A stretch of DNA of 12,834 nt from Candidatus Thorarchaeota archaeon SMTZ1-45. GTDB lineage: Archaea > Asgardarchaeota > Thorarchaeia > Thorarchaeales > Thorarchaeaceae. The translations under genes were made by a program, and so were the position numbers. The notes under the pieces were generated by a model. That model had not been told where the DNA came from and ran no database searches. It saw nothing but the letters and a program-made list of their open reading frames with translations. Below are positions 1 to 12,834 of this stretch, in pieces (positions within the stretch are counted from its first letter, which is position 1; each line of letters begins with the position of its first letter). The DNA is taken from assembly GCA_001563335.1 (NCBI GenBank), contig LRSL01000096.1:1-12834 (forward strand), in the 5' to 3' direction.

Positions 1-3000
1 ACGATCCTCCAGGTCTAGGAACTCATGGTCTTACAATAGAAGCGACCAAGACAGGTTTTCAGAGCCAGATTAACAACACTGAAAGTCTAACAATCCAAAT
101 TGAGCCCACATCATTGCAACTCGATTGGTGGGTTTCAAACACCATAACCTATGTAGAACAAACTGTCCTCTATGTCAATTTCACTATGAGTAATGGATCC
201 GCTGTCGTTGGAGCTTTTGTGACTGCAGTTATTGGTTCAGCTAACAAGACATTTGAATGGAATTCAATTTCTGAAGTCTATAACCTCGTCCTGAGTGGAA
301 ATGACCCTGGATATGGTCTAGGCATACACACAGTGATGATCCAGGCGACACTTTTTGGATATCAGCAACAGAACGACAACACGCAGACACTTACAGTTCA
401 GGAGGAGCCAACTACTCTAACTCCATCATGGAGCGATGGAAATAGTATAACCTATGTGGAGAGTACTGTTCTTTCTGTCAGCTATGACATGAGTAATGGA
501 TCTGCAATAGCTGGAGCATTAGTTAATGTTACAATTGGTTTAGATGTCTGGATATTAGTATGGAATCCAATTTCAGAGGAGTATGAGTATTCATTCACGG
601 GATCAGATGTATCACCTGGTTTTGGAACTCACTCTCTATTGATTCAAGCATCATTGCTAGGCTTCCAAAATGCGAGTAATTCCTTAGAGTCTCTGACAAT
701 AACTCTTGAGCCCACAGATATGCTAGTCACTTGGTCCAATGGTGATAATATCAGCTACTTCTCACACACTTACCTTTTCGTTGATTATAGGATGAGTAAT
801 CTGACAACGATTAGAAATGCAATATTGAATGTGACAATCAAAGCGACGGTCTGGACAATGCAATGGAATGAAACAGCAGGATTATACCAGGTGCGGTTCA
901 ATGGGTCTGATACAACACCCGGAATTGGTACACACAACCTACTAATTCAGGCATGGAAATATGGGTATGTTTCAAGGTCAAACGATACTGAAACCCTGAC
1001 CCTTCCTGTCATCCCTACAACAATTCTCATTTCATGGTCTAATAGTAATAACATCACATTCGTTGAACAAACGACACTTATTGTTACATATTCAATGTTC
1101 AATGGAACAGCAATCCAAGGTGCCACCATTAATATTACAATTGACGCAACACTCTTTGAACTGGTCTGGAATGGCACTAGTGAAGCATATGAGTATGTCT
1201 TCAAGGGAACTGACAATCCACCAGGTTTGGGTTCAAACCCTGCTCACATCAATGCATGGCGAACTGACTTTCAACCGCACCTCGATATGGTCGATAGTTT
1301 TACTATCAATGAAGAACCAACTACCCTATTGATCACATGGTCAAATGGTTATAACATCTCATACGTTAGGGAAACCACACTCTCTGTTCAATATCAAATG
1401 AGTAATGCAACATCGATTCCTGAAGCAGTCCTTAATGTAACAATCAATGGTCGGCTCTGGAGTCTAACATGGAATCCAGTGAGTGAAGCATATGAGGTGG
1501 TAATCAGAGGAGATGACAATCCACCAGGCTACGGGACTCATGCTGTCGAGATTCGTGCATCGAAATATGGTTATGTATCAATTGCTGATACGACACAGGA
1601 GTTTACTATCAGACTTGAAGATACGAGTATTTCATTCACCTGGGACCCAAGTAGCACCATCACATACGTAGGAATGACAAAACTCAGAGTATCCTATCTC
1701 ATGAGTAACAGCACGCCCATTGTGGGTGCCATAGTGAACATAACGAGAGGACCGAGCATTTGGGTTGCTCTATGGAATGGTACGTCTCAAGCCTATGAGT
1801 ATTCATGGACGGGATCAGATGACCCGCCAGGACTTGGTACTCATTTGCTCCTCGTAAAAGCATGGAAAGTCAACTATGTTGGAATTAGTGATACATCTCA
1901 AACTTTGAGGATTAATGAGGAACAGACCTTTATCCAAGCTTTCTGGACTGATGGCGACTTGATTACATATGTACAATCAACAACGCTGCAGGTAAATTAC
2001 ACAGCGAGTGATGGTACTACTATATTAGGTGCACTTGTCGATGTCACAATTGGTACCGATAACTGGATATTATTGTGGAATGCGGGAAGTCAGCTATATG
2101 AGATTACCTTCTTGGGTTCTGACAATCCACCAGGACTAGGTACACATGGTCTCTCAATACGAGGCTGGCAATTTGGCTATGAAACGACTGTAGACACATC
2201 CATGACTCTAACAATTACAGGTGAAATGGGCAGTATATCAAGTGAGTTGATTGGTGGTAACACGATTTCATATGTGGGGTATACTGTTCTTGCTGTCAAC
2301 TACACAATGTCAAATGGAACAGCGATACCTCTAGCTACCGTAAATGTTACAATAAGTGGAATATTATGGAATCTTACTTGGCATGCAGCCAGTGGAACAT
2401 ATCGGATTCAATTCAATGGGACAGATAGTCCTCCAGGTCTAGGAACACATAATCTAATTGTAAAAGCATGGCGAAATGGGTTTGATGGGCAAACAGACTC
2501 GACGAAGTTCCTCACAATTGTTGAAGAATCTACAAGTCTGGTAATCTATTGGGGAGCCCCTAATTTCAACAACTTGACTTACTTTGAACACACGATACTC
2601 TATGTGGAGTATAGAATGAGCAATGGAACGGTCATTCAAGGAGCAAATGTCAATGTCACAATTGACTCAAACACTTGGGAACTTCAATGGAACTCGACTC
2701 AGGGAGCCTATTCACTTAGATTCAATGGCTCAGATTCTCCACCAGGGCTTGGAATGCACAGCCTAACTATTGAAGCAGAAAAGTTTGGATTCGAACATCG
2801 TGTAGTTTCAGATATTACACTTATTCTCTCCAAAGATCCAACATCCCTTGGTATTTCTTGGATTGGAGGGAATGATATAACGTATGTTGAACATACAATA
2901 CTCTCAGTCACCTACAAGATGAGTAATGGTTCTGACATTATTGGTGCTATTGTTAATGCAACCATTGGAGGAGCAACCTGGAGCCTTGCGTGGAACGGGA

Positions 3001-5879
3001 CAGCTGGGGCATATCAAATACAGTTCAATGGAAACCAGAATCCACCAGGACTTGGTTCTTTCACAGTGATCATCCAAGCCTCAGCTGATGTCTACGTGTC
3101 GAGGACAGGTGGTTCATCCCTCACGGTTCAAAACGAGAGCACAACAGCAACTCCATCATGGTCATCGTTCATATTTGATTGGACAGAGAGTACCATCTTG
3201 TCTATTGATTTCAGAAACTCATATGGTACCCCCATTGATGGAGCCACCACTAAATCGATTTTTGTAAATGGGACTCAATATGAACTGATGGGTACAAATG
3301 GCACATACTGGTTTGAGTTCAACAACACATTTGATCTAGGGCTTCATAATATATGGGCAAACCTCAGCAAGTATGGATATGATACAGCCACAGCGAGTTC
3401 AATAACTTTCACAATCGTTGAAGCACCAACTGCACTTACAGTTAGCTGGAGTTCTACGTCTATCGATTACCTCGGTCAATTTGACCTGACAGTAGACTAC
3501 TATATCACAGGTTCAGGTATGAGTGTACCAGCACTAGGAGTTCTAGTGAACATCACTATTGATAGCTCAACAACAGTTCCATTAACACTCCAAGAAGGAT
3601 TTTGGATTGCGAATCTCACTGGCGTATCACTAGATCTTGGTGACCATGATATAGTAATCAGAGCGTGGGCTTATGGCTATCAGTATAGTGAAACCTCGGA
3701 CATTGTAACTGTGAATGAAGTCACAACGAACTCATTGGTTGTATCATGGAACCCTGTGAATCTAACAATAGAATATATCGACTCTTTTGATCTCACAGTT
3801 GACTATACCTACTACGGAGGCGACGCCCCAAGTTCTTCGATTGTTAATGTTACGGTTGATGGAAGACTCTATGTTTTAGTATATTCTGCGGGTCTTTGGA
3901 GTGTGTCTATTCCAGGTGATGAATTGGGAATTGGATTGTATACAGCAACAGTTAATGCTTGGGCATATGGATACTCAATGCAATCAGATGTGACAGCCAA
4001 CCTTAATGTCACTGAGGCAGCAAACTCATTCTTGGTAACCTGGGAGCCATGGGACCTTGATGCATCATACATAGACTTGGTGAATGTATCTGTCATTTAT
4101 ACTCAGGATTTCATACCAATTGCTAATGCAACAGTACAACTCACAATCAATAGTACACCATACCAATTGACATACAATGATGTGGATAAGAAGTGGCATT
4201 TCAGTATACTAGCTACCAATATTGGTCTAGGAAATTGGAATGTGACTGTGACTGCAAATAAGACTGGTTATGCAGATGGATGGGATTCTAGAATCCTAAC
4301 AATATCTCCTGCAGCCACTAACCTAACCATAATTGTTTCTGCAACGAGCATATATTATGACGAGGATGTGACGATAGACATCTACTATCAGCTTCTAAAC
4401 ACAAGCATTGTTCCTGGAGCAATGTTGACACTTGAAGTAGACGGGTTCATGCAAATAGCAACTTTGGAGTTAGATCATTGGACATATACTCGGAGCGGCA
4501 GCAGTCTTGGGTTAGGCATTCATACAATCTATGTCAACACCACTGCTTCAGGATTCAATAGTGCAACAGATACCTTCGATATCTCAGTAGATGCAATTCC
4601 AACCTCAGTCAGTACTCCATTAGCTTCTCTCACAATATATGCATATGAATCTACAACAGTTTCATTCACATGGACTGATGAAAAGAATTCAGTTAATTTG
4701 AGCGGTTTTATTCCTGCAGTTACATGGCTCGATGCATATTCTGTGATTGACCATACAAATGGCACTTACAGTATCGAAATCTACAGCAATATGCTCCATG
4801 TTGGTAACTATGAACTTCAGGTCAACTTCATAGGTTTAGGATATGAGAATGGGAGTGCAATGGTCAACATCGATATAATCGAGTTGCCAATTGCATTAGT
4901 TCATTTGGATCAGATCGAGCAATTTGAAAACGAAACAATAATTGTGAACATTCAGATGTTTGAGGCACTCCATGCATCTGTTGTTGATTGGGGTGAGATC
5001 ATCGTAGAGCTGGAAGGCATCCAATATCCATTAGGCTATGATGAAGATACTGAGCAATATTATGTTGAAATCTGGCTAGGTGCATTACTCCCAGGAATAT
5101 ATATCCTTAATTTCACCGCCTCAGCAATCGATTGTGAAACGGAATTTGGAGAGATCGAATTAGAGATTGAAGCAAAGATCTCATACACACTCACCCTAGA
5201 GGTGGATGAAGAGGTTCTAACAGGGCAAGCAATTCAGATTGCAGTTTTAGCGACCTATGAATCAGGTGTAGCGCATGGTTTGCCACTGACTGTTCATGTA
5301 TTGATTGAGAGAGAACAGGGAGCAGCCGAAGACGCAACAGAAATCATAACGACAAACAGTGAAGGAATAGCCACAAGGACTTTCAATGTTCCATTGGACG
5401 CCACGGGATTTACGATCTGGGCTGAATTTGATGGTTCAATTGGAGAATGGCCAGCGATATCTAATATCATAAACCGAGAGGTTACACCTAGCGGGATGGA
5501 CATCCTCTCGTTCTTCATGTGGTTGTTTGGAAACCCAGTTTTTCTTATTATCATCGTGAGCCTTATTGGCGTTCCAGCTGGAGGAGTATTCATGCTACGT
5601 CGAAGACGTGGGAAAATTGCGAGTTCAGTAGTAGATATTGGTGATGCAATAATTAGCCCATCTTCAGCACCTACAGCACCAGCAGGAGAAATGGATAGTC
5701 TTAGAGATGTAATCAAGAAACATCCAGAGGGGATAAGCCGAGCAAATATTGCGAAGTCTCTTGAAATCTCAACGAGCAAAGCTTCAGCTTTAGTGAGAAA
5801 GCTTCTTGGATCAGACACGGGTTTTGAAGAGATAAAAGATGGAAATATTCGAAAAATCCGTTTCCGTGGAGAGGAATAA
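1..5879 (+). CDS. Giant repeat-rich cell-surface glycoprotein (5'-partial) with C-terminal TM helix and cytoplasmic winged-HTH domain
   Basis: The frame is open from position 3 (DPPGLGTHGLTIEATKTGFQSQINNTESLTIQIEPTSL...), so the TTG at 114 is an internal Leu and the true start lies upstream of the window. Contains Thr/Ser/Trp-rich beta repeats with many N-x-S/T sequons. The hydrophobic segment VFLIIIVSLIGVPAGGVFML is followed by RRRRGK (positive-inside). The C-terminus LRDVIKKHPEGISRANIAKSLEISTSKASALVRKL...FEEIKDGNIRKIRF fits a wHTH. Stop TAA at 5877-5879. Confidence 0.9.
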   Translation, partial: DPPGLGTHGLTIEATKTGFQSQINNTESLTIQIEPTSLQLDWWVSNTITYVEQTVLYVNFTMSNGSAVVGAFVTAVIGSANKTFEWNSISEVYNLVLSGNDPGYGLGIHTVMIQATLFGYQQQNDNTQTLTVQEEPTTLTPSWSDGNSITYVESTVLSVSYDMSNGSAIAGALVNVTIGLDVWILVWNPISEEYEYSFTGSDVSPGFGTHSLLIQASLLGFQNASNSLESLTITLEPTDMLVTWSNGDNISYFSHTYLFVDYRMSNLTTIRNAILNVTIKATVWTMQWNETAGLYQVRFNGSDTTPGIGTHNLLIQAWKYGYVSRSNDTETLTLPVIPTTILISWSNSNNITFVEQTTLIVTYSMFNGTAIQGATINITIDATLFELVWNGTSEAYEYVFKGTDNPPGLGSNPAHINAWRTDFQPHLDMVDSFTINEEPTTLLITWSNGYNISYVRETTLSVQYQMSNATSIPEAVLNVTINGRLWSLTWNPVSEAYEVVIRGDDNPPGYGTHAVEIRASKYGYVSIADTTQEFTIRLEDTSISFTWDPSSTITYVGMTKLRVSYLMSNSTPIVGAIVNITRGPSIWVALWNGTSQAYEYSWTGSDDPPGLGTHLLLVKAWKVNYVGISDTSQTLRINEEQTFIQAFWTDGDLITYVQSTTLQVNYTASDGTTILGALVDVTIGTDNWILLWNAGSQLYEITFLGSDNPPGLGTHGLSIRGWQFGYETTVDTSMTLTITGEMGSISSELIGGNTISYVGYTVLAVNYTMSNGTAIPLATVNVTISGILWNLTWHAASGTYRIQFNGTDSPPGLGTHNLIVKAWRNGFDGQTDSTKFLTIVEESTSLVIYWGAPNFNNLTYFEHTILYVEYRMSNGTVIQGANVNVTIDSNTWELQWNSTQGAYSLRFNGSDSPPGLGMHSLTIEAEKFGFEHRVVSDITLILSKDPTSLGISWIGGNDITYVEHTILSVTYKMSNGSDIIGAIVNATIGGATWSLAWNGTAGAYQIQFNGNQNPPGLGSFTVIIQASADVYVSRTGGSSLTVQNESTTATPSWSSFIFDWTESTILSIDFRNSYGTPIDGATTKSIFVNGTQYELMGTNGTYWFEFNNTFDLGLHNIWANLSKYGYDTATASSITFTIVEAPTALTVSWSSTSIDYLGQFDLTVDYYITGSGMSVPALGVLVNITIDSSTTVPLTLQEGFWIANLTGVSLDLGDHDIVIRAWAYGYQYSETSDIVTVNEVTTNSLVVSWNPVNLTIEYIDSFDLTVDYTYYGGDAPSSSIVNVTVDGRLYVLVYSAGLWSVSIPGDELGIGLYTATVNAWAYGYSMQSDVTANLNVTEAANSFLVTWEPWDLDASYIDLVNVSVIYTQDFIPIANATVQLTINSTPYQLTYNDVDKKWHFSILATNIGLGNWNVTVTANKTGYADGWDSRILTISPAATNLTIIVSATSIYYDEDVTIDIYYQLLNTSIVPGAMLTLEVDGFMQIATLELDHWTYTRSGSSLGLGIHTIYVNTTASGFNSATDTFDISVDAIPTSVSTPLASLTIYAYESTTVSFTWTDEKNSVNLSGFIPAVTWLDAYSVIDHTNGTYSIEIYSNMLHVGNYELQVNFIGLGYENGSAMVNIDIIELPIALVHLDQIEQFENETIIVNIQMFEALHASVVDWGEIIVELEGIQYPLGYDEDTEQYYVEIWLGALLPGIYILNFTASAIDCETEFGEIELEIEAKISYTLTLEVDEEVLTGQAIQIAVLATYESGVAHGLPLTVHVLIEREQGAAEDATEIITTNSEGIATRTFNVPLDATGFTIWAEFDGSIGEWPAISNIINREVTPSGMDILSFFMWLFGNPVFLIIIVSLIGVPAGGVFMLRRRRGKIASSVVDIGDAIISPSSAPTAPAGEMDSLRDVIKKHPEGISRANIAKSLEISTSKASALVRKLLGSDTGFEEIKDGNIRKIRFRGEE
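102..3137 (+). repeat. Ten complete tandem ~101-aa (303-bp) protein repeats, plus a partial copy at 1-101
   Basis: The D(x)PPGLG-type motif starts at 303, 606, 909, 1212, 1515, 1818, 2121, 2424, 2733 and 3036. The period is 303 bp, with one 309-bp unit. Consensus: EPTxLxxxWSNGxNITYxExTxLxVxYxMSNGxxIxGAxVNVTI...WxLxWN....YxxxFxGxDxPPGLGTHxLxIxAxKxGY...LTI. Confidence 0.95.
3138..5180 (+). repeat. About seven degenerate ~95-100-aa copies of the same beta-rich module
   Basis: Recurrent FDLGLHN / LDLGDHD / LGIGLYT / IGLGNWN / LGLGIHT / LHVGNYE / LLPGIYI motifs, mostly followed by A..xG[YF]. These copies lack the DxPP loop. Confidence 0.75.
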
Positions 5880-6201
5880 AACAGGATAGATCGATACATT
5901 GAACATCCAAAATCGCTAGATTCACCCTACTCAGATATTGTGATAATTCTGTAAAGTACTTGAATAAGTAAAAGAGCCAATCAGGTTCAGAAATCATGAA
6001 TCAACCCAAGGTGACACCCACAGTTTATTGATATGGCTATATGTTCTTGATAACGTACTTAACATGAGGCTCTTAGCACATCCTGAAAATGTTGAAAAGT
6101 AGACTAACTGGTCTAGACTTTGACTCTCTGATATAATTGAAGAAAGTACATTAAGTCAAGGACTGTTGTGCTGAGATAATCAATCATAACAACGTACCAT
6201 C

Positions 6202-6206
6202 GAGGA
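6202..6206 (+). promoter_or_regulatory. Possible Shine-Dalgarno-like GAGGA upstream of ORF2
   Basis: GAGGA ends 6 nt before the ATG at 6213. Confidence 0.35.
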
Positions 6207-6212
6207 TAGAAC

Positions 6213-9200
6213 ATGAGAAGAGTAATTATCTCAATCATTCTAATACTCTCACTTCTTAGTGTATCTTCAACTAGAGTGTCTACTCCTCTATCAACTTCAT
6301 CAAGTTCTACTCTTGATTATACTCCCACGAATTCAGTATTGATGTCCCAAATAACACATTCAGGGAGCAGTGTTCCTGTTAATCAATATCTGAATAGACT
6401 GTTCTCGGAACAAGTTCTTACAATATCAAATAGCTATGCTCTTCCAGACATACATGAGAATACAATTGATTTATCATCCTATCAAATACCAGGTTGGACG
6501 TTGTACAAAGTCATACTTGATTATGACAATATTACTGCAATTGAAGAGAGGGAAGTTGTTGGTTCGAATAGTACAACTTCTGCCAGTATCGCTTACGCAA
6601 TTTATGAGCATGATATTGACCTTTATTATGATCAACTTGCTCAAGGATTCTACAACATGGGTCACGATGGACAATTGCAGAATGTTTCGATATTGTACAT
6701 GTCTCCCACCTATGACCCGGCGAATCACAATTATGCATATATCGACATTAGATCAGACTATCAAGATGGATCTACTAATATGGTGTCCTCGGTACAACTA
6801 GAAAATGTTGGACTTTCCGCTACATGGGCAAACATAACAGAACCTGTCATTCTAGATTCCAGTACAACATACTATGTTGTTATGAATGGCAGCTTGCTGA
6901 TTGAATTCCTTACTTTCTATCCCGATATTCGATGGTACTACGAAAATGTTGCAGAATCTTTCCTGACTCGTCGTCATAACACAGATGGGGATACTTGGGG
7001 CTCAGACAGACCATTCGAAGCAATACTGAACTATACATACGTACCATGGAATAAAACATCGAACTCAGCTCTTGTCTATTCATATCCTGCTGATGTAAGC
7101 CTGATGCTCAATGGAACGCCTGTTTCTGGTTCTTCATGGAGTATTAGTTCTGGGACCAATATTACATCATTGCAGATTTCATCCGACCAATCTGTAAATG
7201 TCGTTTATAATCTAACATTATGCTATACACAGGACATATCAGCAAATTCACTTTGGAAAGCAAGCACTTCTGGCGCTCCTATCTTGTGGAATGTTACAAC
7301 AGACCTTTCCTATCCAGCAGTATCAAATATTGTGGCTCAATTCATGAACATAACAAACATCCCACTTGACTGGACTGAAACAGGGTTATACCTTGGCACC
7401 TCACCTGCTGGCTCTTATGTAAAATCAGGCACAGTCGTCACTTGTACTGGACTGAGTGATGGAACATGGACTTTCACATCTACAGCTCCAAACTATGCAG
7501 TGGACCTAGCATTATATGATTCATCAGATGATTCTCTCATAATTTACAAAGTGGCAAATCTAGTAATAATGGATGTCAATGCAACGATTGAAGATGGCGT
7601 TGGAACACCCATGACTGATGGCACAACCAATCTTTCAATATTGCAATTGACAAACCTCATCTACTCTCCTCTAGAGAAACCTGCAAGTAATGGAGCAGTT
7701 TCATTTTCATGGGATATTAGCTCAACAACAGATGGTAATAGCACTCATTCAGTAGAAGTTTATTGGATAAGTACTGATGAACTAGAAGCAGGATACATTA
7801 CTCAAAATGTCTTTGTATATCATTCAACAACATTAGTCGCAGATGATTTGAGTATTAGTGATTTCACTGAGGATTCTTTCACAATCGGTATCAATTTTGA
7901 TAAGATCAGTCCAGCACAAGGGCTGGATGATACTCTAGCGGATGTTACCTATTCGTTTGGAAGTACAATAAATGCTTCATTAACAGATGCAGGTGGAGGA
8001 AGATGGACTCAAATAATTGATACAACGGGTATGAGTAATGGCGTTCATCTCCTCACCGTTTACGCAGAGGGGTACGCACTTGAAAATCACAGTCTAGTAA
8101 TAACTGTAGACCTAGCTCATCAAACACAAGCTCTCAATTGGAGTTGGTCGAACACTGATAATATTACATATACTAACAGCACAAATCTCTCTATATCTTA
8201 CATTATGCAGGATGGGACAACTAGGATATCGGGAGCAACAGTCAATATAACAATAGAGGGAGTGCCCCATGATATGACATGGGATGGTTTGACCGGAACT
8301 TACTGGATCGAACTTACTGGTGAGAACTTCACAGGTGTGGGGACTTTTTCATTAGACGTCATTGCTTGGAAAGTGGGATATGAGCCGCAGACAAGTGAAA
8401 TTAACATCACAGTCCGAAGTGAAACAACTGGATTATTTTTCGATGTAGAATATAATCCGACGGATCTTAACATCTCTTACATCGAAAGTCTATTCATTCA
8501 AGTGACTTACAACTTCAACTCAATACCGATTAATAGTAGCACTCTTGTTAGAGTCACATTCAACGGCTCAACGCCAGTAGAGCTCATTTTTAATCCTGTA
8601 TCTTCAAAATGGGAAACAACTCTTTTGGGAATCGACTATCTAGGTGCATGGAACATATTGGTTCGAGCAACATCTGTTGGGTTCGATGCTATGAATGACA
8701 CAGCTGTTTTTTCAGTCTATGAAGATATTCCTATTTTGAGCAGTTCTTGGTCAGGAGATGTAGAAACCACGGATTATGCTACAAATGCCCCTCTGATTAT
8801 CACTCTTACAGATTCAAGCGGAACACCAATTACAGACGCAAATGTATCATTTACAGCATTTGGAACACCCTACTTACTATTAACTGGTCCAGGAGGACTT
8901 TATTCATTCAATATCGATCCTACTGAAACGAGAGGAGTTGAAACGTTCATAGTTTATGTCGTAAGAGAAGGTTTTGTATCATCTCAAATTAGCTTGAATC
9001 TTACAGTGGAAGCGACAACATCACTCCAGTTCCACAACTTGTTGAGTTCAGAATATGAGCAATGGAATCTCACTATCGAAGTAAGATACATGGACACTTT
9101 CTATAGTAGTGCAATAGAAAACGCAACAGTCATAGTAAACCTCGATGGTGTGGACTATATCCTTCAGTACTCATCTGCAGCTGAAGTCTACACAATCGAA

Positions 9201-10790
9201 ATCACTCTGGATTTAGATCCGGGAGATTATACAATCTATGTGTCAGCCTTTGCGGAGTATGCTGCGTATGCAACCAATCAAGCCGCATTCACAGTTAATG
9301 CGAAAGAGTATGTGTATCTTGAGGTGACCTTTGATGGAAACCTAATTGCTGGTCAGTTCATGGAAATCATTGCTACCCTGAGATCTAATAATACAGGTAA
9401 TCCCGCAATACCAGGTGAAACGATACGATTCGAGGTTTCTGTGTATTTTGAGAATGGTACAGTTCTACATTATACAGGTCCAACAATGATAGACTCCACC
9501 AATACAGAAGGTGTTGCATCGGTCGGTTTTGAAGTACCATTTGGAAATGTCGATAGACTCACTGCTCGTGCCATCTATGATGGTAGCAGAACTAGATGGG
9601 GAACAGAAAGAACTGAGGTAGCAGGCGTTGAAGTCAGTCTGCTCTCCCTTCTATTAGCGTTCTTTACGAGTGGTGTAGGTCTCATGATAGTAATCTCTAT
9701 GGCTCTTCTAGGCATAGTGGCAACGGGATACAACAAAGCAGTGAAGCCTAGGAAAAGAGCAGCTAGACTCAGCCTTGAGAACCAGCTTCAGATGTTCAAA
9801 GATCTTGAAACAGTACAACACTTTATGGCAGTATATCTTGACCGAGGGACCTGTGTATTCTATCATCCATTCACTGAGGATAGGATCCAACCAGATCTGA
9901 TCAGTGGATTTATCGCTGCAATCACAAGTGTGTATGGTGAGATTAAGGGAGATGGAGTCAGAGGAACCCTTGAAGAGATTCAATATCATGGATTACGCCT
10001 TAACAGTTACAGTGGTCAATACATCATTGGCATACTTATTTTGGAGGGTGAGATGACACCACTCCTGAGGGAGCGACTCCAGTTCTTCGTAGAGTTATTT
10101 GAGAACCAGTATGATCAGGACCTTGACGGTTGGACAGGGCTTATTGATTGTTTTGACCCTGAATGGGTAGTTTCTACATTGAACTCAGCCTTCAATTATG
10201 CATGGCATCTTCCACACAGATTTGGACCTACACAGAAAGTGTCTAAGACTGATGCTAGGATGCTGGACTATATCAGTGCAGTTAGAGATGACAAAAATGA
10301 GTTCTATATCAAGGATATAATATCACCATTGGCTGAAATGTTGGAGAAGACAGAACCAGAAGTTTTGGATAGATTACTCCTGTTACAAGATCGAGGAGTT
10401 ATAGTACCGATAGGTGTTCAAACCATTCTTCAACGCCAAGGATTGGCTCTGGTGGATGGCTCAGAGCAGCCTATGCTTGAACCGTCACAAATTGTGCGAG
10501 AAGAAAAAGTCGAGGATCAGATTGAGCCTGAAAAAGCAACACCAGAACATGCTGAAGAACTCGAGTTCGAGGAAATAAAAGAGGAAGTAACTATCGAACC
10601 TCAAGAGGAAGAAGTGGCTGAACCAGAACCTCAGATCGACCCGATGGATGCTTTTGTTCAAGATGTTGAATCACTTCTTGTTGAAAAGGCGAAAGAGGAG
10701 AAGAAAGAGAAGAAAAAGGACGACGAGTTGGATCAATTTGTGAAAGAGCTGAGAGCAAAGATAGGAGAAGATGAGGAAACAGAAGACTAG
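6213..10790 (+). CDS. Large single-pass cell-surface glycoprotein with cytoplasmic longin-like domain, wHTH-like domain and acidic tail
   Basis: Signal peptide MRRVIISIILILSLLSVSS, then a sequon-rich beta ectodomain with modules homologous to ORF1. TM region LLSLLLAFFTSGVGLMIVISMALLGIVATGY is followed by the basic KAVKPRKR. Next is VQHFMAVYLDRGTCVF...IQPDLISGFIAAITSVYGEI...LEEIQYHGLRL...GQYIIGILIL...LRERLQFFVELFE (longin-like beta-beta-alpha-beta-beta-beta-alpha-alpha). A wHTH-like segment and an E/D-rich tail follow. Confidence 0.9.
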   Translation: MRRVIISIILILSLLSVSSTRVSTPLSTSSSSTLDYTPTNSVLMSQITHSGSSVPVNQYLNRLFSEQVLTISNSYALPDIHENTIDLSSYQIPGWTLYKVILDYDNITAIEEREVVGSNSTTSASIAYAIYEHDIDLYYDQLAQGFYNMGHDGQLQNVSILYMSPTYDPANHNYAYIDIRSDYQDGSTNMVSSVQLENVGLSATWANITEPVILDSSTTYYVVMNGSLLIEFLTFYPDIRWYYENVAESFLTRRHNTDGDTWGSDRPFEAILNYTYVPWNKTSNSALVYSYPADVSLMLNGTPVSGSSWSISSGTNITSLQISSDQSVNVVYNLTLCYTQDISANSLWKASTSGAPILWNVTTDLSYPAVSNIVAQFMNITNIPLDWTETGLYLGTSPAGSYVKSGTVVTCTGLSDGTWTFTSTAPNYAVDLALYDSSDDSLIIYKVANLVIMDVNATIEDGVGTPMTDGTTNLSILQLTNLIYSPLEKPASNGAVSFSWDISSTTDGNSTHSVEVYWISTDELEAGYITQNVFVYHSTTLVADDLSISDFTEDSFTIGINFDKISPAQGLDDTLADVTYSFGSTINASLTDAGGGRWTQIIDTTGMSNGVHLLTVYAEGYALENHSLVITVDLAHQTQALNWSWSNTDNITYTNSTNLSISYIMQDGTTRISGATVNITIEGVPHDMTWDGLTGTYWIELTGENFTGVGTFSLDVIAWKVGYEPQTSEINITVRSETTGLFFDVEYNPTDLNISYIESLFIQVTYNFNSIPINSSTLVRVTFNGSTPVELIFNPVSSKWETTLLGIDYLGAWNILVRATSVGFDAMNDTAVFSVYEDIPILSSSWSGDVETTDYATNAPLIITLTDSSGTPITDANVSFTAFGTPYLLLTGPGGLYSFNIDPTETRGVETFIVYVVREGFVSSQISLNLTVEATTSLQFHNLLSSEYEQWNLTIEVRYMDTFYSSAIENATVIVNLDGVDYILQYSSAAEVYTIEITLDLDPGDYTIYVSAFAEYAAYATNQAAFTVNAKEYVYLEVTFDGNLIAGQFMEIIATLRSNNTGNPAIPGETIRFEVSVYFENGTVLHYTGPTMIDSTNTEGVASVGFEVPFGNVDRLTARAIYDGSRTRWGTERTEVAGVEVSLLSLLLAFFTSGVGLMIVISMALLGIVATGYNKAVKPRKRAARLSLENQLQMFKDLETVQHFMAVYLDRGTCVFYHPFTEDRIQPDLISGFIAAITSVYGEIKGDGVRGTLEEIQYHGLRLNSYSGQYIIGILILEGEMTPLLRERLQFFVELFENQYDQDLDGWTGLIDCFDPEWVVSTLNSAFNYAWHLPHRFGPTQKVSKTDARMLDYISAVRDDKNEFYIKDIISPLAEMLEKTEPEVLDRLLLLQDRGVIVPIGVQTILQRQGLALVDGSEQPMLEPSQIVREEKVEDQIEPEKATPEHAEELEFEEIKEEVTIEPQEEEVAEPEPQIDPMDAFVQDVESLLVEKAKEEKKEKKKDDELDQFVKELRAKIGEDEETED

Positions 10791-10863
10791 CTTCTACAAA
10801 GTGATGGCTTTCAAGCCAAGAACACTTATGTACATCACATAATGGACTCAGGTTGTGTATAGA

Positions 10864-11175
10864 ATGCCTTGGGACATCATTAGCTATAACATAGTCGATA
10901 ATCGCATCTTACATGTGGAAATTACCACTCCATTGATTGAATTCATGTATCTCAAGATTGATGATGTTAAGAAGGCCTGGGTGAAATTCCTGGGACAGTT
11001 TATTACAGACCAACCAGGCATTGACATGTCGTGGGAAATGGAGCCTCGAGATGATAACGCATTAGTGACCATTAAAATAGCAAAGATAGGGGATTTGCCT
11101 GAATTCAGTGCTGCAGAAGCCAAAAGTGCGATTGATGCTATTGATGCAGTTGATGGGTTACTTGAAGACTCATAG
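10864..11175 (+). CDS. Small hypothetical alpha/beta protein (~103 aa)
   Basis: Clean ORF filling the gap between ORF2 and the LarA-like gene, with a plausible globular composition. ATG at 10864 is preferred, and GTG at 10855 is an alternative. No family recognised. Confidence 0.7.
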   Translation: MPWDIISYNIVDNRILHVEITTPLIEFMYLKIDDVKKAWVKFLGQFITDQPGIDMSWEMEPRDDNALVTIKIAKIGDLPEFSAAEAKSAIDAIDAVDGLLEDS

Positions 11176-11176
11176 T

Positions 11177-12436
11177 CTAATTCCTAGATAACCTTGGAGT
11201 AGTCCTTATTCCATCATTCAAAATCGCCACCTTCCTACTAGATGCAAGCATGCTGTGAGCAACTTCAAAACCTTCTCTTGGATGACTCACAGCAGTACAG
11301 TGCAGTCGCTCTTCCACAAGTGAATTGCGAAGTTTACTACAGAGTATAATGTTTCGGGAACTCAAAATTTCCCAGAAGAATCGAGCTTTTTCCATTCCAA
11401 ATTCAAAATTTGTTTCAGAGGTGGCGATAAGGTCTTCTGCAGATGAGAATTCTGACATTCCATGCAGGAACCCCTTAGGTCCAACATCATCACTACACTC
11501 AGCCACAAGTACAATAAATCCTCCTTGCTCAGTAACCTCGAATGCGGAATAAAGGCAATCTATTGCATCATAAAGCGTTGAATCGTAGGGATGACCACCA
11601 GCACTAACTATTGCTATATCAGCCCGTCTGGTAAAGTCAGCCTTTGCTAGACTAGATGCTGCGTCTACTCCGTGCATCCAAGAGGTAAGGGGATTTCCAG
11701 CTACAAGGTGAGCAAGATTTCCATCCCAATCTGATACAGCATTGACAATAAAGTCTAAACCAGCGAGCTGTGATGTTTCTAGCATATCTACGCAGGATGG
11801 AGTTTCCATTTCAAAGGGACCAATGCGTCCTGACACTCGCAGCTTAGCATTACGACGGATTGTTCTGCTTCCTGAAACACTTGGAATCACAGACATGCGA
11901 CCACCAGTTGCTCCATAAAACAAATCAGGCCGAATCTCCCCCAAACCAATCTTAAGATCTGCACAAAGATAGCCTTCGTTTATGTGGACTGGTGTAGAGT
12001 GACTTGGAGTTTCGCCTAGGAATTTGAGAGATGATTTGTTCTTAGGGTTGTGAAGAAGGAGCAAGTGTCCTCTGGATTCAGGATTTCCCAAGTAGTCATC
12101 AACTTCAGTCTTTGAGATTCTCTCATTAATAGGATAGATAATCGAAACATTATCTGGATTGAACGCGAAGGTTTCTACGCTATTGAGGAGTGAGTGCAGA
12201 AGCTCCTCCATAAGCTCAAGGTGCTCAATCCGGTTTATAACGATAGCAATTGAGTCAACCTCTGATAGTCTTCTGGAGAATGGCTGAGAGTCTATTGGTG
12301 ATTCGATAACTCTAAGCAATTCAGATGAAACATTCGGGAGCTTGGTTACTGTCTTAGGGACAACCTGCTCAATGGTAAAATTATCACTCAAATCGAGTGG
12401 AAGAAAGCCCTCTCCATATCGCAGGTCGACTCTCAT
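11177..12436 (-). CDS. larA: LarA (nickel-pincer lactate racemase, DUF2088) family protein with degenerate active site
   Basis: N-terminal MRVDLRYGEG, plus FLGETPSHSTPVHINE, ADLKIGLGEIRP, GGRMSVIPSVS, LDFIVNAV, ADIAIVSAGGHPYDSTLY and GGFIVLVAECSDDVG, all match the LarA family scaffold. The length of 419 aa is typical. Catalytic residues are substituted (see findings), so lactate racemase activity is doubtful. Confidence 0.85.
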   Translation of the reverse strand: MRVDLRYGEGFLPLDLSDNFTIEQVVPKTVTKLPNVSSELLRVIESPIDSQPFSRRLSEVDSIAIVINRIEHLELMEELLHSLLNSVETFAFNPDNVSIIYPINERISKTEVDDYLGNPESRGHLLLLHNPKNKSSLKFLGETPSHSTPVHINEGYLCADLKIGLGEIRPDLFYGATGGRMSVIPSVSGSRTIRRNAKLRVSGRIGPFEMETPSCVDMLETSQLAGLDFIVNAVSDWDGNLAHLVAGNPLTSWMHGVDAASSLAKADFTRRADIAIVSAGGHPYDSTLYDAIDCLYSAFEVTEQGGFIVLVAECSDDVGPKGFLHGMSEFSSAEDLIATSETNFEFGMEKARFFWEILSSRNIILCSKLRNSLVEERLHCTAVSHPREGFEVAHSMLASSRKVAILNDGIRTTPRLSRN

Positions 12437-12547: not shown

Positions 12548-12834
12548 ATGAGGAATGCAGACAGATTGCTACTATTGTCAGTGGCCGTTCTTCTTGTCTA
12601 TTTGATTCTAAGTTTGTTATTTCCGGATATAATAAGTCCATTCGGAGTGATCTATAATTGGCTATTAGACATCTCCCTATTGCTTGGGTACCTAGGAGCG
12701 TTCTTCATATCAATAATAGGAAATGCTACAATACTATTTCCTTTCCCTTATGTTGGAGTGGCTTTCATACTTGGAGGTCTAAGGAATGAAGTAACAATGA
12801 ACTTCGTTTTTAATCCTTGGCTAGTTGGTGCAGT
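12548..12834 (+). CDS. DedA / VTT-domain (SNARE-associated Golgi protein-like) membrane protein, 3'-partial
   Basis: Not in the ORF track because it runs off the window. My translation is MRNADRLLLLSVAVLLVYLILSLLFPDIISPFGVIYNWLLDISLLLGYLGAFFISIIGNATILFPFPYVGVAFILGG...FNPWLVGA. GYLGAF.IS.IGNATI.FP.PY followed by NPWLVG matches the archaeal DedA re-entrant helix pattern. There is an in-frame TAG just upstream, at 12542. Confidence 0.75.
   Translation, partial: MRNADRLLLLSVAVLLVYLILSLLFPDIISPFGVIYNWLLDISLLLGYLGAFFISIIGNATILFPFPYVGVAFILGGLRNEVTMNFVFNPWLVGA

Follow-up and report, generated by a model that had tools for sequence, protein, structure and literature searches.

What might a pair of giant archaeal surface proteins do with folded domains on the inner side of the membrane? 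The question arose from contig LRSL01000096.1 (C96) of Candidatus Thorarchaeota archaeon SMTZ1-45, the whole of which (12,834 bases, called the window below) was analysed. It belongs to a 3.54-Mb genome of 119 contigs (42% G+C, 87.7% complete). Sequencing runs listed for it were four DNA metagenomes and none of RNA. Two long plus-strand open reading frames (ORFs) fill bases 3-10790. ORF1 (3..5879), with 1,958 amino acids (aa) visible and its 5' end cut by the contig end, is the long member of a paralogous pair, and ORF2 (6213..10790), complete at 1,525 aa, is the short member. The two genes form a conserved tandem and encode paralogous surface glycoproteins of type I that are receptor-like in layout and have folded inner domains. 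All features of the pair described below lie on the plus strand.

We first establish which parts of the proteins lie inside. Each protein has a single hydrophobic stretch of about 34 residues with a G/P-containing kink, followed by a basic cluster, as an earlier sequence-only reading of the locus had proposed. The ORF1 anchor (5499..5600; residues 1833-1866) carries GNP mid-stretch and runs into RRRRGK; that of ORF2 (9630..9734; residues 1140-1174) contains SGVG and is followed by KAVKPRKRAAR. ORF2 opens with a signal peptide (6213..6281; residues 1-23), and full-length ORF1 orthologues begin with a signal-type start, the N-terminus being missing from the ORF1 of the window. N-X-S/T sequons number 60 in ORF1 and 34 in ORF2, all N-terminal to the transmembrane (TM) segment, with none in either tail. 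Because a signal peptide is present, sequons occur only before the anchor and basic residues follow it, we assigned the tails (92 aa in ORF1, 352 aa in ORF2) to the cytoplasm, in agreement with the type-I topology suggested earlier. A two-helix hairpin that would leave the tails outside was considered and rejected, as about 34 residues are too few to cross the membrane twice, the tails lack sequons and a basic cluster follows. The signal peptide, the sequon-rich repeat ectodomain, the one C-terminal TM segment and the positive-inside flank are all those of type-I archaeal surface glycoproteins, but neither ORF1 nor ORF2 ends within a few residues of the TM segment. Instead, both tails contain folded domains in predicted structures, and these are kept in homologues, as the sequence-only reading had anticipated.

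The ORF2 tail comprises a longin-fold domain (9774..10208; residues 1188-1332) with the order helix, two strands, helix, three strands, helix; a winged-helix-like domain (10209..10436; residues 1333-1408), which is not basic (isoelectric point (pI) 5.75, net charge -1); and an acidic tail (10437..10787) with 42 D/E in 115 residues. A 240-residue core (window 9768-10487) was aligned with 38 relatives (39 members) and modelled with AlphaFold2, which returned a predicted local distance difference test score (pLDDT) of 90.7 and a predicted template modelling score of 0.84. In the model, strands (E) and helices (H) fall at E16-23, E29-34, H42-60, E70-73, E76-82, E86-92 and H98-114, and the longin occupies residues 15-147. 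Foldseek placed this domain with TRAPP Bet5 (3cue_C; probability 1.00, E 8.5e-5), and also with adaptor protein (AP) sigma, zeta-COP, Fuzzy, LAMTOR2, MglB and an Asgard roadblock. Comparison by VIA gave Z 12.0 to Fuzzy (7q3d_C; root mean square deviation (rmsd) 2.9 over 125 aligned residues), 11.8 to AP-3 (sigma), 11.4 to Sec22 and 10.9 to a Lokiarchaeota Roadblock-Longin protein. The model has the beta-beta-alpha-beta-beta-beta-alpha topology with a five-stranded sheet that defines the longin fold class, and VIA Z values to Fuzzy, AP-3 sigma, Sec22, VAMP7 and a Loki longin were 10-12 over 117-130 residues. Model residues 146-223 are winged-helix-like, with Z 8.9 to the RRE domain of TbtB (VIA). 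The acidic tail is poorly conserved overall, except for the motif DPMDAFVQDVESLL (10638..10679; residues 1476-1489), of the form FVxDVESLL, which is present twice in some orthologues. Its DVESLL is a candidate match to the [DE]xxxL[LI] pattern.

The ORF1 tail is simpler. A cytoplasmic linker (5601..5678; residues 1867-1892), predicted to be disordered (pLDDT 48-59), leads to a terminal winged helix (5679..5876; residues 1893-1958) of the order H-H-H-beta-beta with a basic wing. We modelled this tail together with 20 orthologous tails (21 sequences); its elements were H27-40, H47-53, H58-71, E75-80 and E83-88, with pLDDT above 90 in the winged helix. The three-helix bundle and beta-hairpin wing are those of a MarR/ArsR/Lrp-type winged helix, and superposition on DriD, MarR, SlyA, MepR and ArsR/SmtB gave rmsd 1.1-2.8 over 59-65 columns (Foldseek E 1e-3 to 1e-2). 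Two tail residues, R47 and G81, were invariant in the 21 sequences. Pfam cut-offs for helix-turn-helix (HTH) domains were not reached by ORF1 (HTH_24, E 0.091, 12.8 bits vs 21.9) or by ORF2 (NirdL-like_HTH, 15.8 bits in the tail scan and 16.1 bits with the 240-aa core, vs a cut-off of 27). Complex prediction with the ORF2 tail core and the ORF1 tail, acidic tail and TM segment not included, scored 0.00, which speaks neither for nor against.

The sequence-only reading held that the two proteins diverge completely after the TM segment. This is true of the letters in the window, but not of the family, since the ORF1-position proteins of one other genus (g12) have a homologous longin before the same terminal winged helix. 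Among genera that carry the pair, the gene upstream of the ORF2-type gene encodes tails of differing length: g1, the genus of the window, has 92 aa, g9 has 154-157 aa, g12 has 215-217 aa and g11 has 259-316 aa, and all of these tails terminate in the ORF1-type winged helix. In g12, a longin homologous to that of ORF2 lies between the TM segment and the winged helix (hmmsearch, 26-31 bits), and hhalign aligned it with the ORF2 longin at a probability of 97% (E 1e-10) over 126 columns, the whole longin. The g11 tails matched the ORF2 longin more weakly (13.9 and 9.9 bits), and the g1 and g9 tails gave no longin match (E 0.2-1.4). By parsimony, the ORF1 of the window looks like a reduced form of a TM-longin-winged-helix plan. 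At one locus of the same genus (L030, G043:C13), the ORF1-type frame ends 7 residues after the TM segment, with one in-frame TGA reported; this short frame may reflect an error in sequencing, an allele that has been truncated or tail loss that has gone one step further.

Conservation is highest on the inside. We calculated mean identity to the window protein over 56 ORF2 orthologues of similar length and obtained 87% for the longin and 68% for the winged helix, compared with 49% for the TM segment, 49% for the repeats, 46% for the stalk, 45% for the head and 31% for the acidic tail. The longin is thus far more constrained than any exterior region, which argues for a conserved intracellular partner. 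The arrangement is also widespread. The ORF2 stalk, TM segment and tail together gave 116 matches, 111 of them covering at least 89%, with identity down to 37% and protein lengths of 1,389-2,172 aa. An exhaustive search with the 240-aa core yielded 505 clusters at E <= 1e-3, and the core was matched in 255 of 301 sampled Asgard genomes at E <= 1e-5, that is, in 53 of 70 genera. Just upstream of the module, a TM-like segment was found in 200 of the 212 retrieved proteins with at least 60 residues upstream; among the distant members (25-31% identity), the count was 80 of 88. These distant members include a 2,640-aa protein of Lokiarchaeum ossiferum (WP_371805894.1) and a 3,025-aa protein of 'Harpocratesius repetitus'. 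The tandem of an ORF1-type followed by an ORF2-type gene on one strand, 3-6 kb apart, occurred in 14 genomes from 4 genera, so the synteny across Thorarchaeota that had been proposed as a check was found; ORF maps were checked at 7 loci.

The two proteins are related along their entire length. The original observation was that their membrane-proximal regions align, and it was upheld: ORF1 1629-1831 matched ORF2 948-1131 colinearly (phmmer E 6.4e-10, 38.5 bits), the only non-self match among 14,667 six-frame ORFs of at least 60 aa from the same genome, and all ten strings quoted for it are present and colinear (ORF1 residues 1639, 1667, 1738, 1783 and 1804; ORF2 residues 947, 974, 1044, 1095 and 1117). 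The reverse query with the ORF2 stalk against the same ORFs reported only itself at E <= 0.01, and ORF1 was not reported. BLASTP of the whole proteins gave a best E of 3e-19, with a colinear alignment of ORF1 1296-1873 to ORF2 595-1184 (E 6e-16, 23% identity) spanning the stalk and the TM segment. The stalk similarity is real and far above chance. What had been called a stalk is not one unit, however: both ectodomains are filled with a ~101-aa repeat, the last copy of which is the first of the two quoted blocks, and the second block is a separate membrane-proximal domain.

The ectodomain maps show what the two proteins have in common. ORF1 has 17 visible copies of the ~101-aa repeat (9..5072; residues 3-1690), rich in N-X-S/T sequons, and then a membrane-proximal domain (5100..5492; residues ~1700-1830), which forms the second half of the former 'stalk'. 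ORF2 has, after its signal peptide, a head (6282..8039; residues 24-609), four copies of the ORF1-type ~101-aa repeat (8040..9206; residues 610-998) and a membrane-proximal domain (9240..9617; residues ~1010-1135) homologous to that of ORF1. Repeats were counted with a profile seeded with one ORF1 unit; they are visible at the protein level only, as Tandem Repeats Finder detected no DNA-level repeats in the window. The ORF2 head also opens full-length ORF1 orthologues: the ~610-residue head was matched colinearly at the N-terminus in 14 of 20 ORF1 relatives (E 1e-86 to 2e-175), which carry 20-25 repeats behind it, compared with four in ORF2. ORF1 orthologues are about 2,860-3,390 aa long (10 of the 20 relatives, 3,359-3,389 aa), and, judged from the ~3,370-aa orthologues, this suggests that ~1,400 residues of ORF1 are missing at its 5' end. 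Because head, repeat type, membrane-proximal domain and anchor are all held in common, ORF1 and ORF2 are paralogues over their whole length, with one head on a long or a short stalk. This replaces the former picture, in which the stalk was the constant part and both ectodomains and output modules were shuffled around it. The head has no Pfam match; a weak ESM Atlas lead to archaeal Lectin_like/Big clusters (0.85, under 0.9) was not confirmed by the Pfam scan. Whole ORF1 and ORF2 proteins gave only sub-threshold Pfam matches, for example CarboxypepD_reg (E 2.4e-4, 21.8 bits vs a cut-off of 32.3). For the head, identity was 41-49% within a pair vs 34-43% for cross-genome paralogues, an effect too small, and in too few pairs (4), to support gene conversion within a genome.

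How the inner domains work is a matter of interpretation. At about even odds (a probability near 0.5), they form a membrane-anchored docking platform that ties a surface glycoprotein to GTPase-type or longin-type cytoplasmic partners; we infer both the partner and the direction in which information would pass. On the outside, each protein presents the common ~610-residue head, on ~25 repeats in ORF1 and on 4 in ORF2, followed by the membrane-proximal domain and one anchor. Inside, ORF2 has the longin, the non-basic winged helix and the acidic FVxDVESLL tail, and ORF1 in this genus only the linker and winged helix. On this model, the longin-winged-helix module would act as the docking platform at the inner membrane face, and its partner would be a conserved cytoplasmic protein, either a small Arf/Rab/Rag-like GTPase or another longin/roadblock protein. 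Docking would then couple GTPase-controlled machinery of the cytoplasm to where the surface protein sits, whether it clusters or whether it is engaged.

Several results weigh against this interpretation. The ORF2 longin is a match at the fold level only, as judged from the predicted model: Pfam longin and roadblock models (PF13774, PF19036, PF03259) were matched by none of the 39 family members at E <= 0.01, and a profile search of Protein Data Bank sequences with the ORF2 family returned nothing relevant (best E 0.37). The same fold is not proof of the same function. In none of the aligned family members shown does the beta1-beta2 loop contain the GP motif of GTPase-activating protein (GAP)-type longins; it reads DRGTC in ORF2 and xxG[TLV]x in the others. 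As to a catalytic arginine finger, the R of the ORF2 DRG loop is not conserved in distant family members. ORF1 in this genus works without a longin, so its tail may act otherwise. Finally, of the 28 small-GTPase-like ORFs in the genome, none lies within 14 kb of the 15 places with a longin module, apart from one fusion gene, and none is on the same contig as a membrane-anchored module; adjacency or fusion of the MglB/Ragulator type was thus not seen for these modules. The nearest GTPase-like ORFs are 14 kb and 45 kb away and most are on other contigs, and short contigs make this evidence weak.

The sole GTPase link is that conserved soluble fusion protein, P0263 (locus L031, C18:3235-5196, minus strand). 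Its 654 aa begin with a longin-like part at the N-terminus, continue with an Arf-like GTPase (Pfam Arf, E 4.3e-18) and a linker, and close with a second longin-like domain and two winged helices; its longin-winged-helix module belongs to the ORF2 sequence family (E 5.8e-9). Of 87 genomes of the class, 63 keep P0263 at full length in a single frame, with 46-90% identity. Soluble longin-winged-helix paralogues in the genome gave sub-threshold Pfam matches to Fuz_longin_1 (2e-4; 22.0 bits vs 26.1), HTH_47 (2.2e-6), HTH_NPRL3 (8.8e-4) and Robl_LC7 (14.9 bits vs 23). Two soluble genes with a longin-like domain and a double winged helix lie 8 bp apart at C37:28291-29163 and 29171-29995 (plus strand); one of them has a sub-threshold match to the C-terminal HTH of GATOR1 NPRL3 (E 8.8e-4, 19.6 bits vs 27.2) and to HTH_47.

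We then catalogued cytoplasmic tails across the genome, as the sequence-only reading had recommended, and found several unrelated tail classes on giant surface proteins. A stalk/TM profile shared with ORF2 detected five further proteins: ORF1 and ORFs on contigs C10, C89, C16 and C76. The latter four all end in a second longin-winged-helix subfamily, with G-[LI]-P at the GP position of the beta1-beta2 loop. In a crude hydropathy screen of ORFs of at least 700 aa, the tail measured 0-30 aa in ~22 surface proteins and 90-400 aa in ~20. Giant type-I proteins form tandem pairs at three more places, C81 (3,975 and 3,667 aa), C14 (2,431 and 3,168 aa) and C58 (2,589 and 2,567 aa), and share another tail class, in which an RGK-PKP motif next to the membrane is accompanied by a helical region that is conserved and by repeats of the unit 'EELR..L...G.P..EIE.I..QA..LPREL'. 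Two class D giants, one of 4,674 aa (C66:4944-18965, plus strand) and the other a 1,004-aa fragment (C70:2322-5333, minus strand), share a distinct ~110-aa helical tail, and at a distance of 20-38 bp each has a convergent neighbour that encodes a soluble protein with tetratricopeptide repeat (TPR)-like and longin-like parts (C66:18986-20029, minus strand; C70:803-2284, plus strand). Giant surface proteins with long folded tails are thus a general feature of this organism, and longins recur with such tails, fused or adjacent.

This trait bears on the first alternative, in which the tail serves the surface protein itself, by sorting, placing or anchoring it at protrusions, vesicles, ESCRT (endosomal sorting) or coat-like machinery or actin, with no inward signal. 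We regard this as possible, if on the improbable side. About 20 giants with long tails of unrelated classes would fit a general need to handle very large surface proteins, but tails of 0-30 residues suffice for ~22 other large surface proteins encoded in the genome. The nearest folds to the longin include parts of cargo and coat systems (the AP sigma and mu N-terminal domains, zeta-COP, Sec22 and VAMP7), and the acidic tail, otherwise unconserved, keeps a motif ending in LL that is doubled in some orthologues. The proximity of both class D giants to a convergent TPR-longin gene points the same way. On the other hand, 87% identity of the longin across genera exceeds the usual need of a simple anchor, and no coat, ESCRT or actin gene was found adjoining the ORF1/ORF2 pair, whose downstream neighbour is LarA-like.

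A more specific form of coupling would be a contact sensor working at two heights. If each repeat is an Ig-like domain of ~4 nm (assumed), the long and the short stalk would hold their heads ~100 nm and ~16 nm from the membrane. When a head engaged a partner cell or surface, the ORF2 tails would cluster, and an Arf-like GTPase would be recruited or switched locally. We consider such a sensor unlikely. If true, it would represent a prokaryotic forerunner of receptor-to-small-GTPase coupling and of cargo-adaptor recognition, and would bear on how Asgard cells organise protrusions and syntrophic contacts.

The winged helices raise a different alternative, namely that the proteins are membrane-tethered transcription regulators that bind DNA at the membrane or after proteolytic release of the tail. 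The terminal domain of ORF1 is a canonical winged helix whose nearest structures are the DNA-binding domains of MarR, SlyA, MepR, ArsR/SmtB and DriD; its basic wing (GRxRxIRF) is conserved, helices 2-3 hold one R that is invariant and one K that is nearly so, and its pI is 9.3; one source also labels some ORF2 relatives 'DNA-binding Lrp family transcriptional regulator'. However, the ORF1 winged helix carries little net charge (-2 to +4 over the 21 sequences), the ORF2 winged helix is acidic to neutral (net -1 at pI 5.75), and both tails missed the Pfam HTH cut-offs. The winged helices next to longins in NPRL2/3 are protein-protein modules, and in ToxR/CadC-type regulators the DNA-binding domain is N-terminal, the opposite order. 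Winged helices of ESCRT(-II) are likewise described as protein-protein modules in the text available of PMC10936438. We consider a regulatory role of this kind quite unlikely. Least probable, and very unlikely, is that these are purely structural envelope proteins or adhesins with partnerless evolutionary leftovers inside: apparent loss of the longin from ORF1 in this genus and in g9 indicates that it is dispensable for at least one paralogue, and no partner gene is linked to the pair, but a leftover domain would decay first, whereas the longin is the best-conserved part of ORF2 (87% vs 45-49%) and the module sits behind a TM segment in 200 of 212 relatives across the phylum.

The rest of the window contains three further ORFs. 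A putative gene of 106 aa without a Pfam match (10855-11175, plus strand) lies between ORF2 and a LarA-like gene (11177-12436, minus strand; Pfam Lar_N 7.2e-23, LarA_C 5.5e-15), the recognisable gene directly after ORF2. An ORF of 422-429 aa in the same place and orientation as the LarA-like gene was present 3' of the ORF2-type gene at all five loci that reach far enough (L026-L030), from three genera. A 3'-open ORF at the end of the window (12548-12832, plus strand) is probably the start of a multi-TM protein of ~250-290 aa like those downstream in relatives.

A docking platform at the inner membrane face would matter for several reasons. Asgard archaea have many longin/roadblock proteins and small GTPases, and they are the closest archaeal relatives of eukaryotes. 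A phylum-wide family with a strongly conserved longin platform behind the anchor of giant glycoproteins would offer a concrete physical connection, open to testing, from the surface of these cells to GTPase-type machinery. The long/short pair with one head, together with the apparent stepwise loss of the longin in one paralogue, provides natural variants for experiments. According to the accessible text of Zhu et al. 2025 (PMC11914678), it is still to be established what regulates the Arf-like GTPases of Asgard archaea. Cryo-tomography of Lokiarchaeum ossiferum has revealed numerous complex surface proteins in place of an S-layer, as stated in the part of PMC9834061 consulted.

Literature searches covering the running text of papers found no account of giant surface proteins with a longin tail behind a membrane anchor, and the known systems closest to ORF2 each share only some of its features. 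The resemblance to eukaryotic GTPase longin platforms is structural: ORF2 residues 1200-1332 gave Z 12.0 to 7q3d_C (Fuzzy-Inturned/CPLANE), 11.3 to 3cue_C (TRAPP) and 9.6-9.8 to Mon1-Ccz1. Fuzzy-Inturned/CPLANE, Mon1-Ccz1, TRAPP Bet5/Trs23 and BLOC-3 are soluble hetero-oligomers that are recruited to membranes, whereas ORF2 is an integral protein without sequence similarity to them, so that the likeness is one of fold only. The GAP-type longins FLCN, NPRL2 and SMCR8/C9orf72 also share the longin fold, and NPRL2/3 in addition pair it with C-terminal winged-helix-type domains. In the text available of PMC12290439, GAP-type longins are described as carrying the GP motif at the end of the beta1-beta2 loop, before strand 2, and some Asgard longins as sharing their motifs; the ORF2 family differs in lacking the GP motif.

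Ragulator-Rag and MglB-MglA, which serve small GTPases, resemble ORF2 in providing a membrane-held platform of the roadblock/longin superfamily, with Z 8.9-10.8 to LAMTOR, MglB and Asgard roadblocks. Ragulator is lipid-anchored via LAMTOR1 and MglB is soluble, whereas the ORF2 platform is anchored by the TM helix of a giant ectodomain and has no adjacent GTPase gene. Longin SNAREs and the SRP receptor SRX-SRbeta likewise have a longin that works at the membrane, next to a TM anchor, and gave Z 11.4 (Sec22), 11.1-11.2 (VAMP7) and 9.4-10.4 (SR alpha SRX). In longin SNAREs, the longin is N-terminal and the TM segment C-terminal, with almost nothing outside. Compared with VAMP7, Sec22b and Ykt6, the order in ORF2 is reversed, there is no SNARE motif and the ectodomain is huge. 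By analogy only, integrins and other type-I adhesion receptors share a large glycosylated ectodomain, an Ig-like stalk, one TM segment and an adaptor-recruiting tail; integrin tails are short peptides, whereas the ORF2 tail is a folded longin, and no homology was found. Similar in domain order are the NPRL2-like longin families that Liu et al. (bioRxiv 10.1101/2020.10.19.343400) describe, in the text available, from most Thor metagenome-assembled genomes, in which a longin is followed by a small C-terminal helical or winged-helix domain. In that text, these families are soluble proteins and two-component fusions, with no 'transmembrane' or 'receptor' wording, whereas here the same order of domains forms the inner tail of a glycoprotein of 1,500-3,400 aa.

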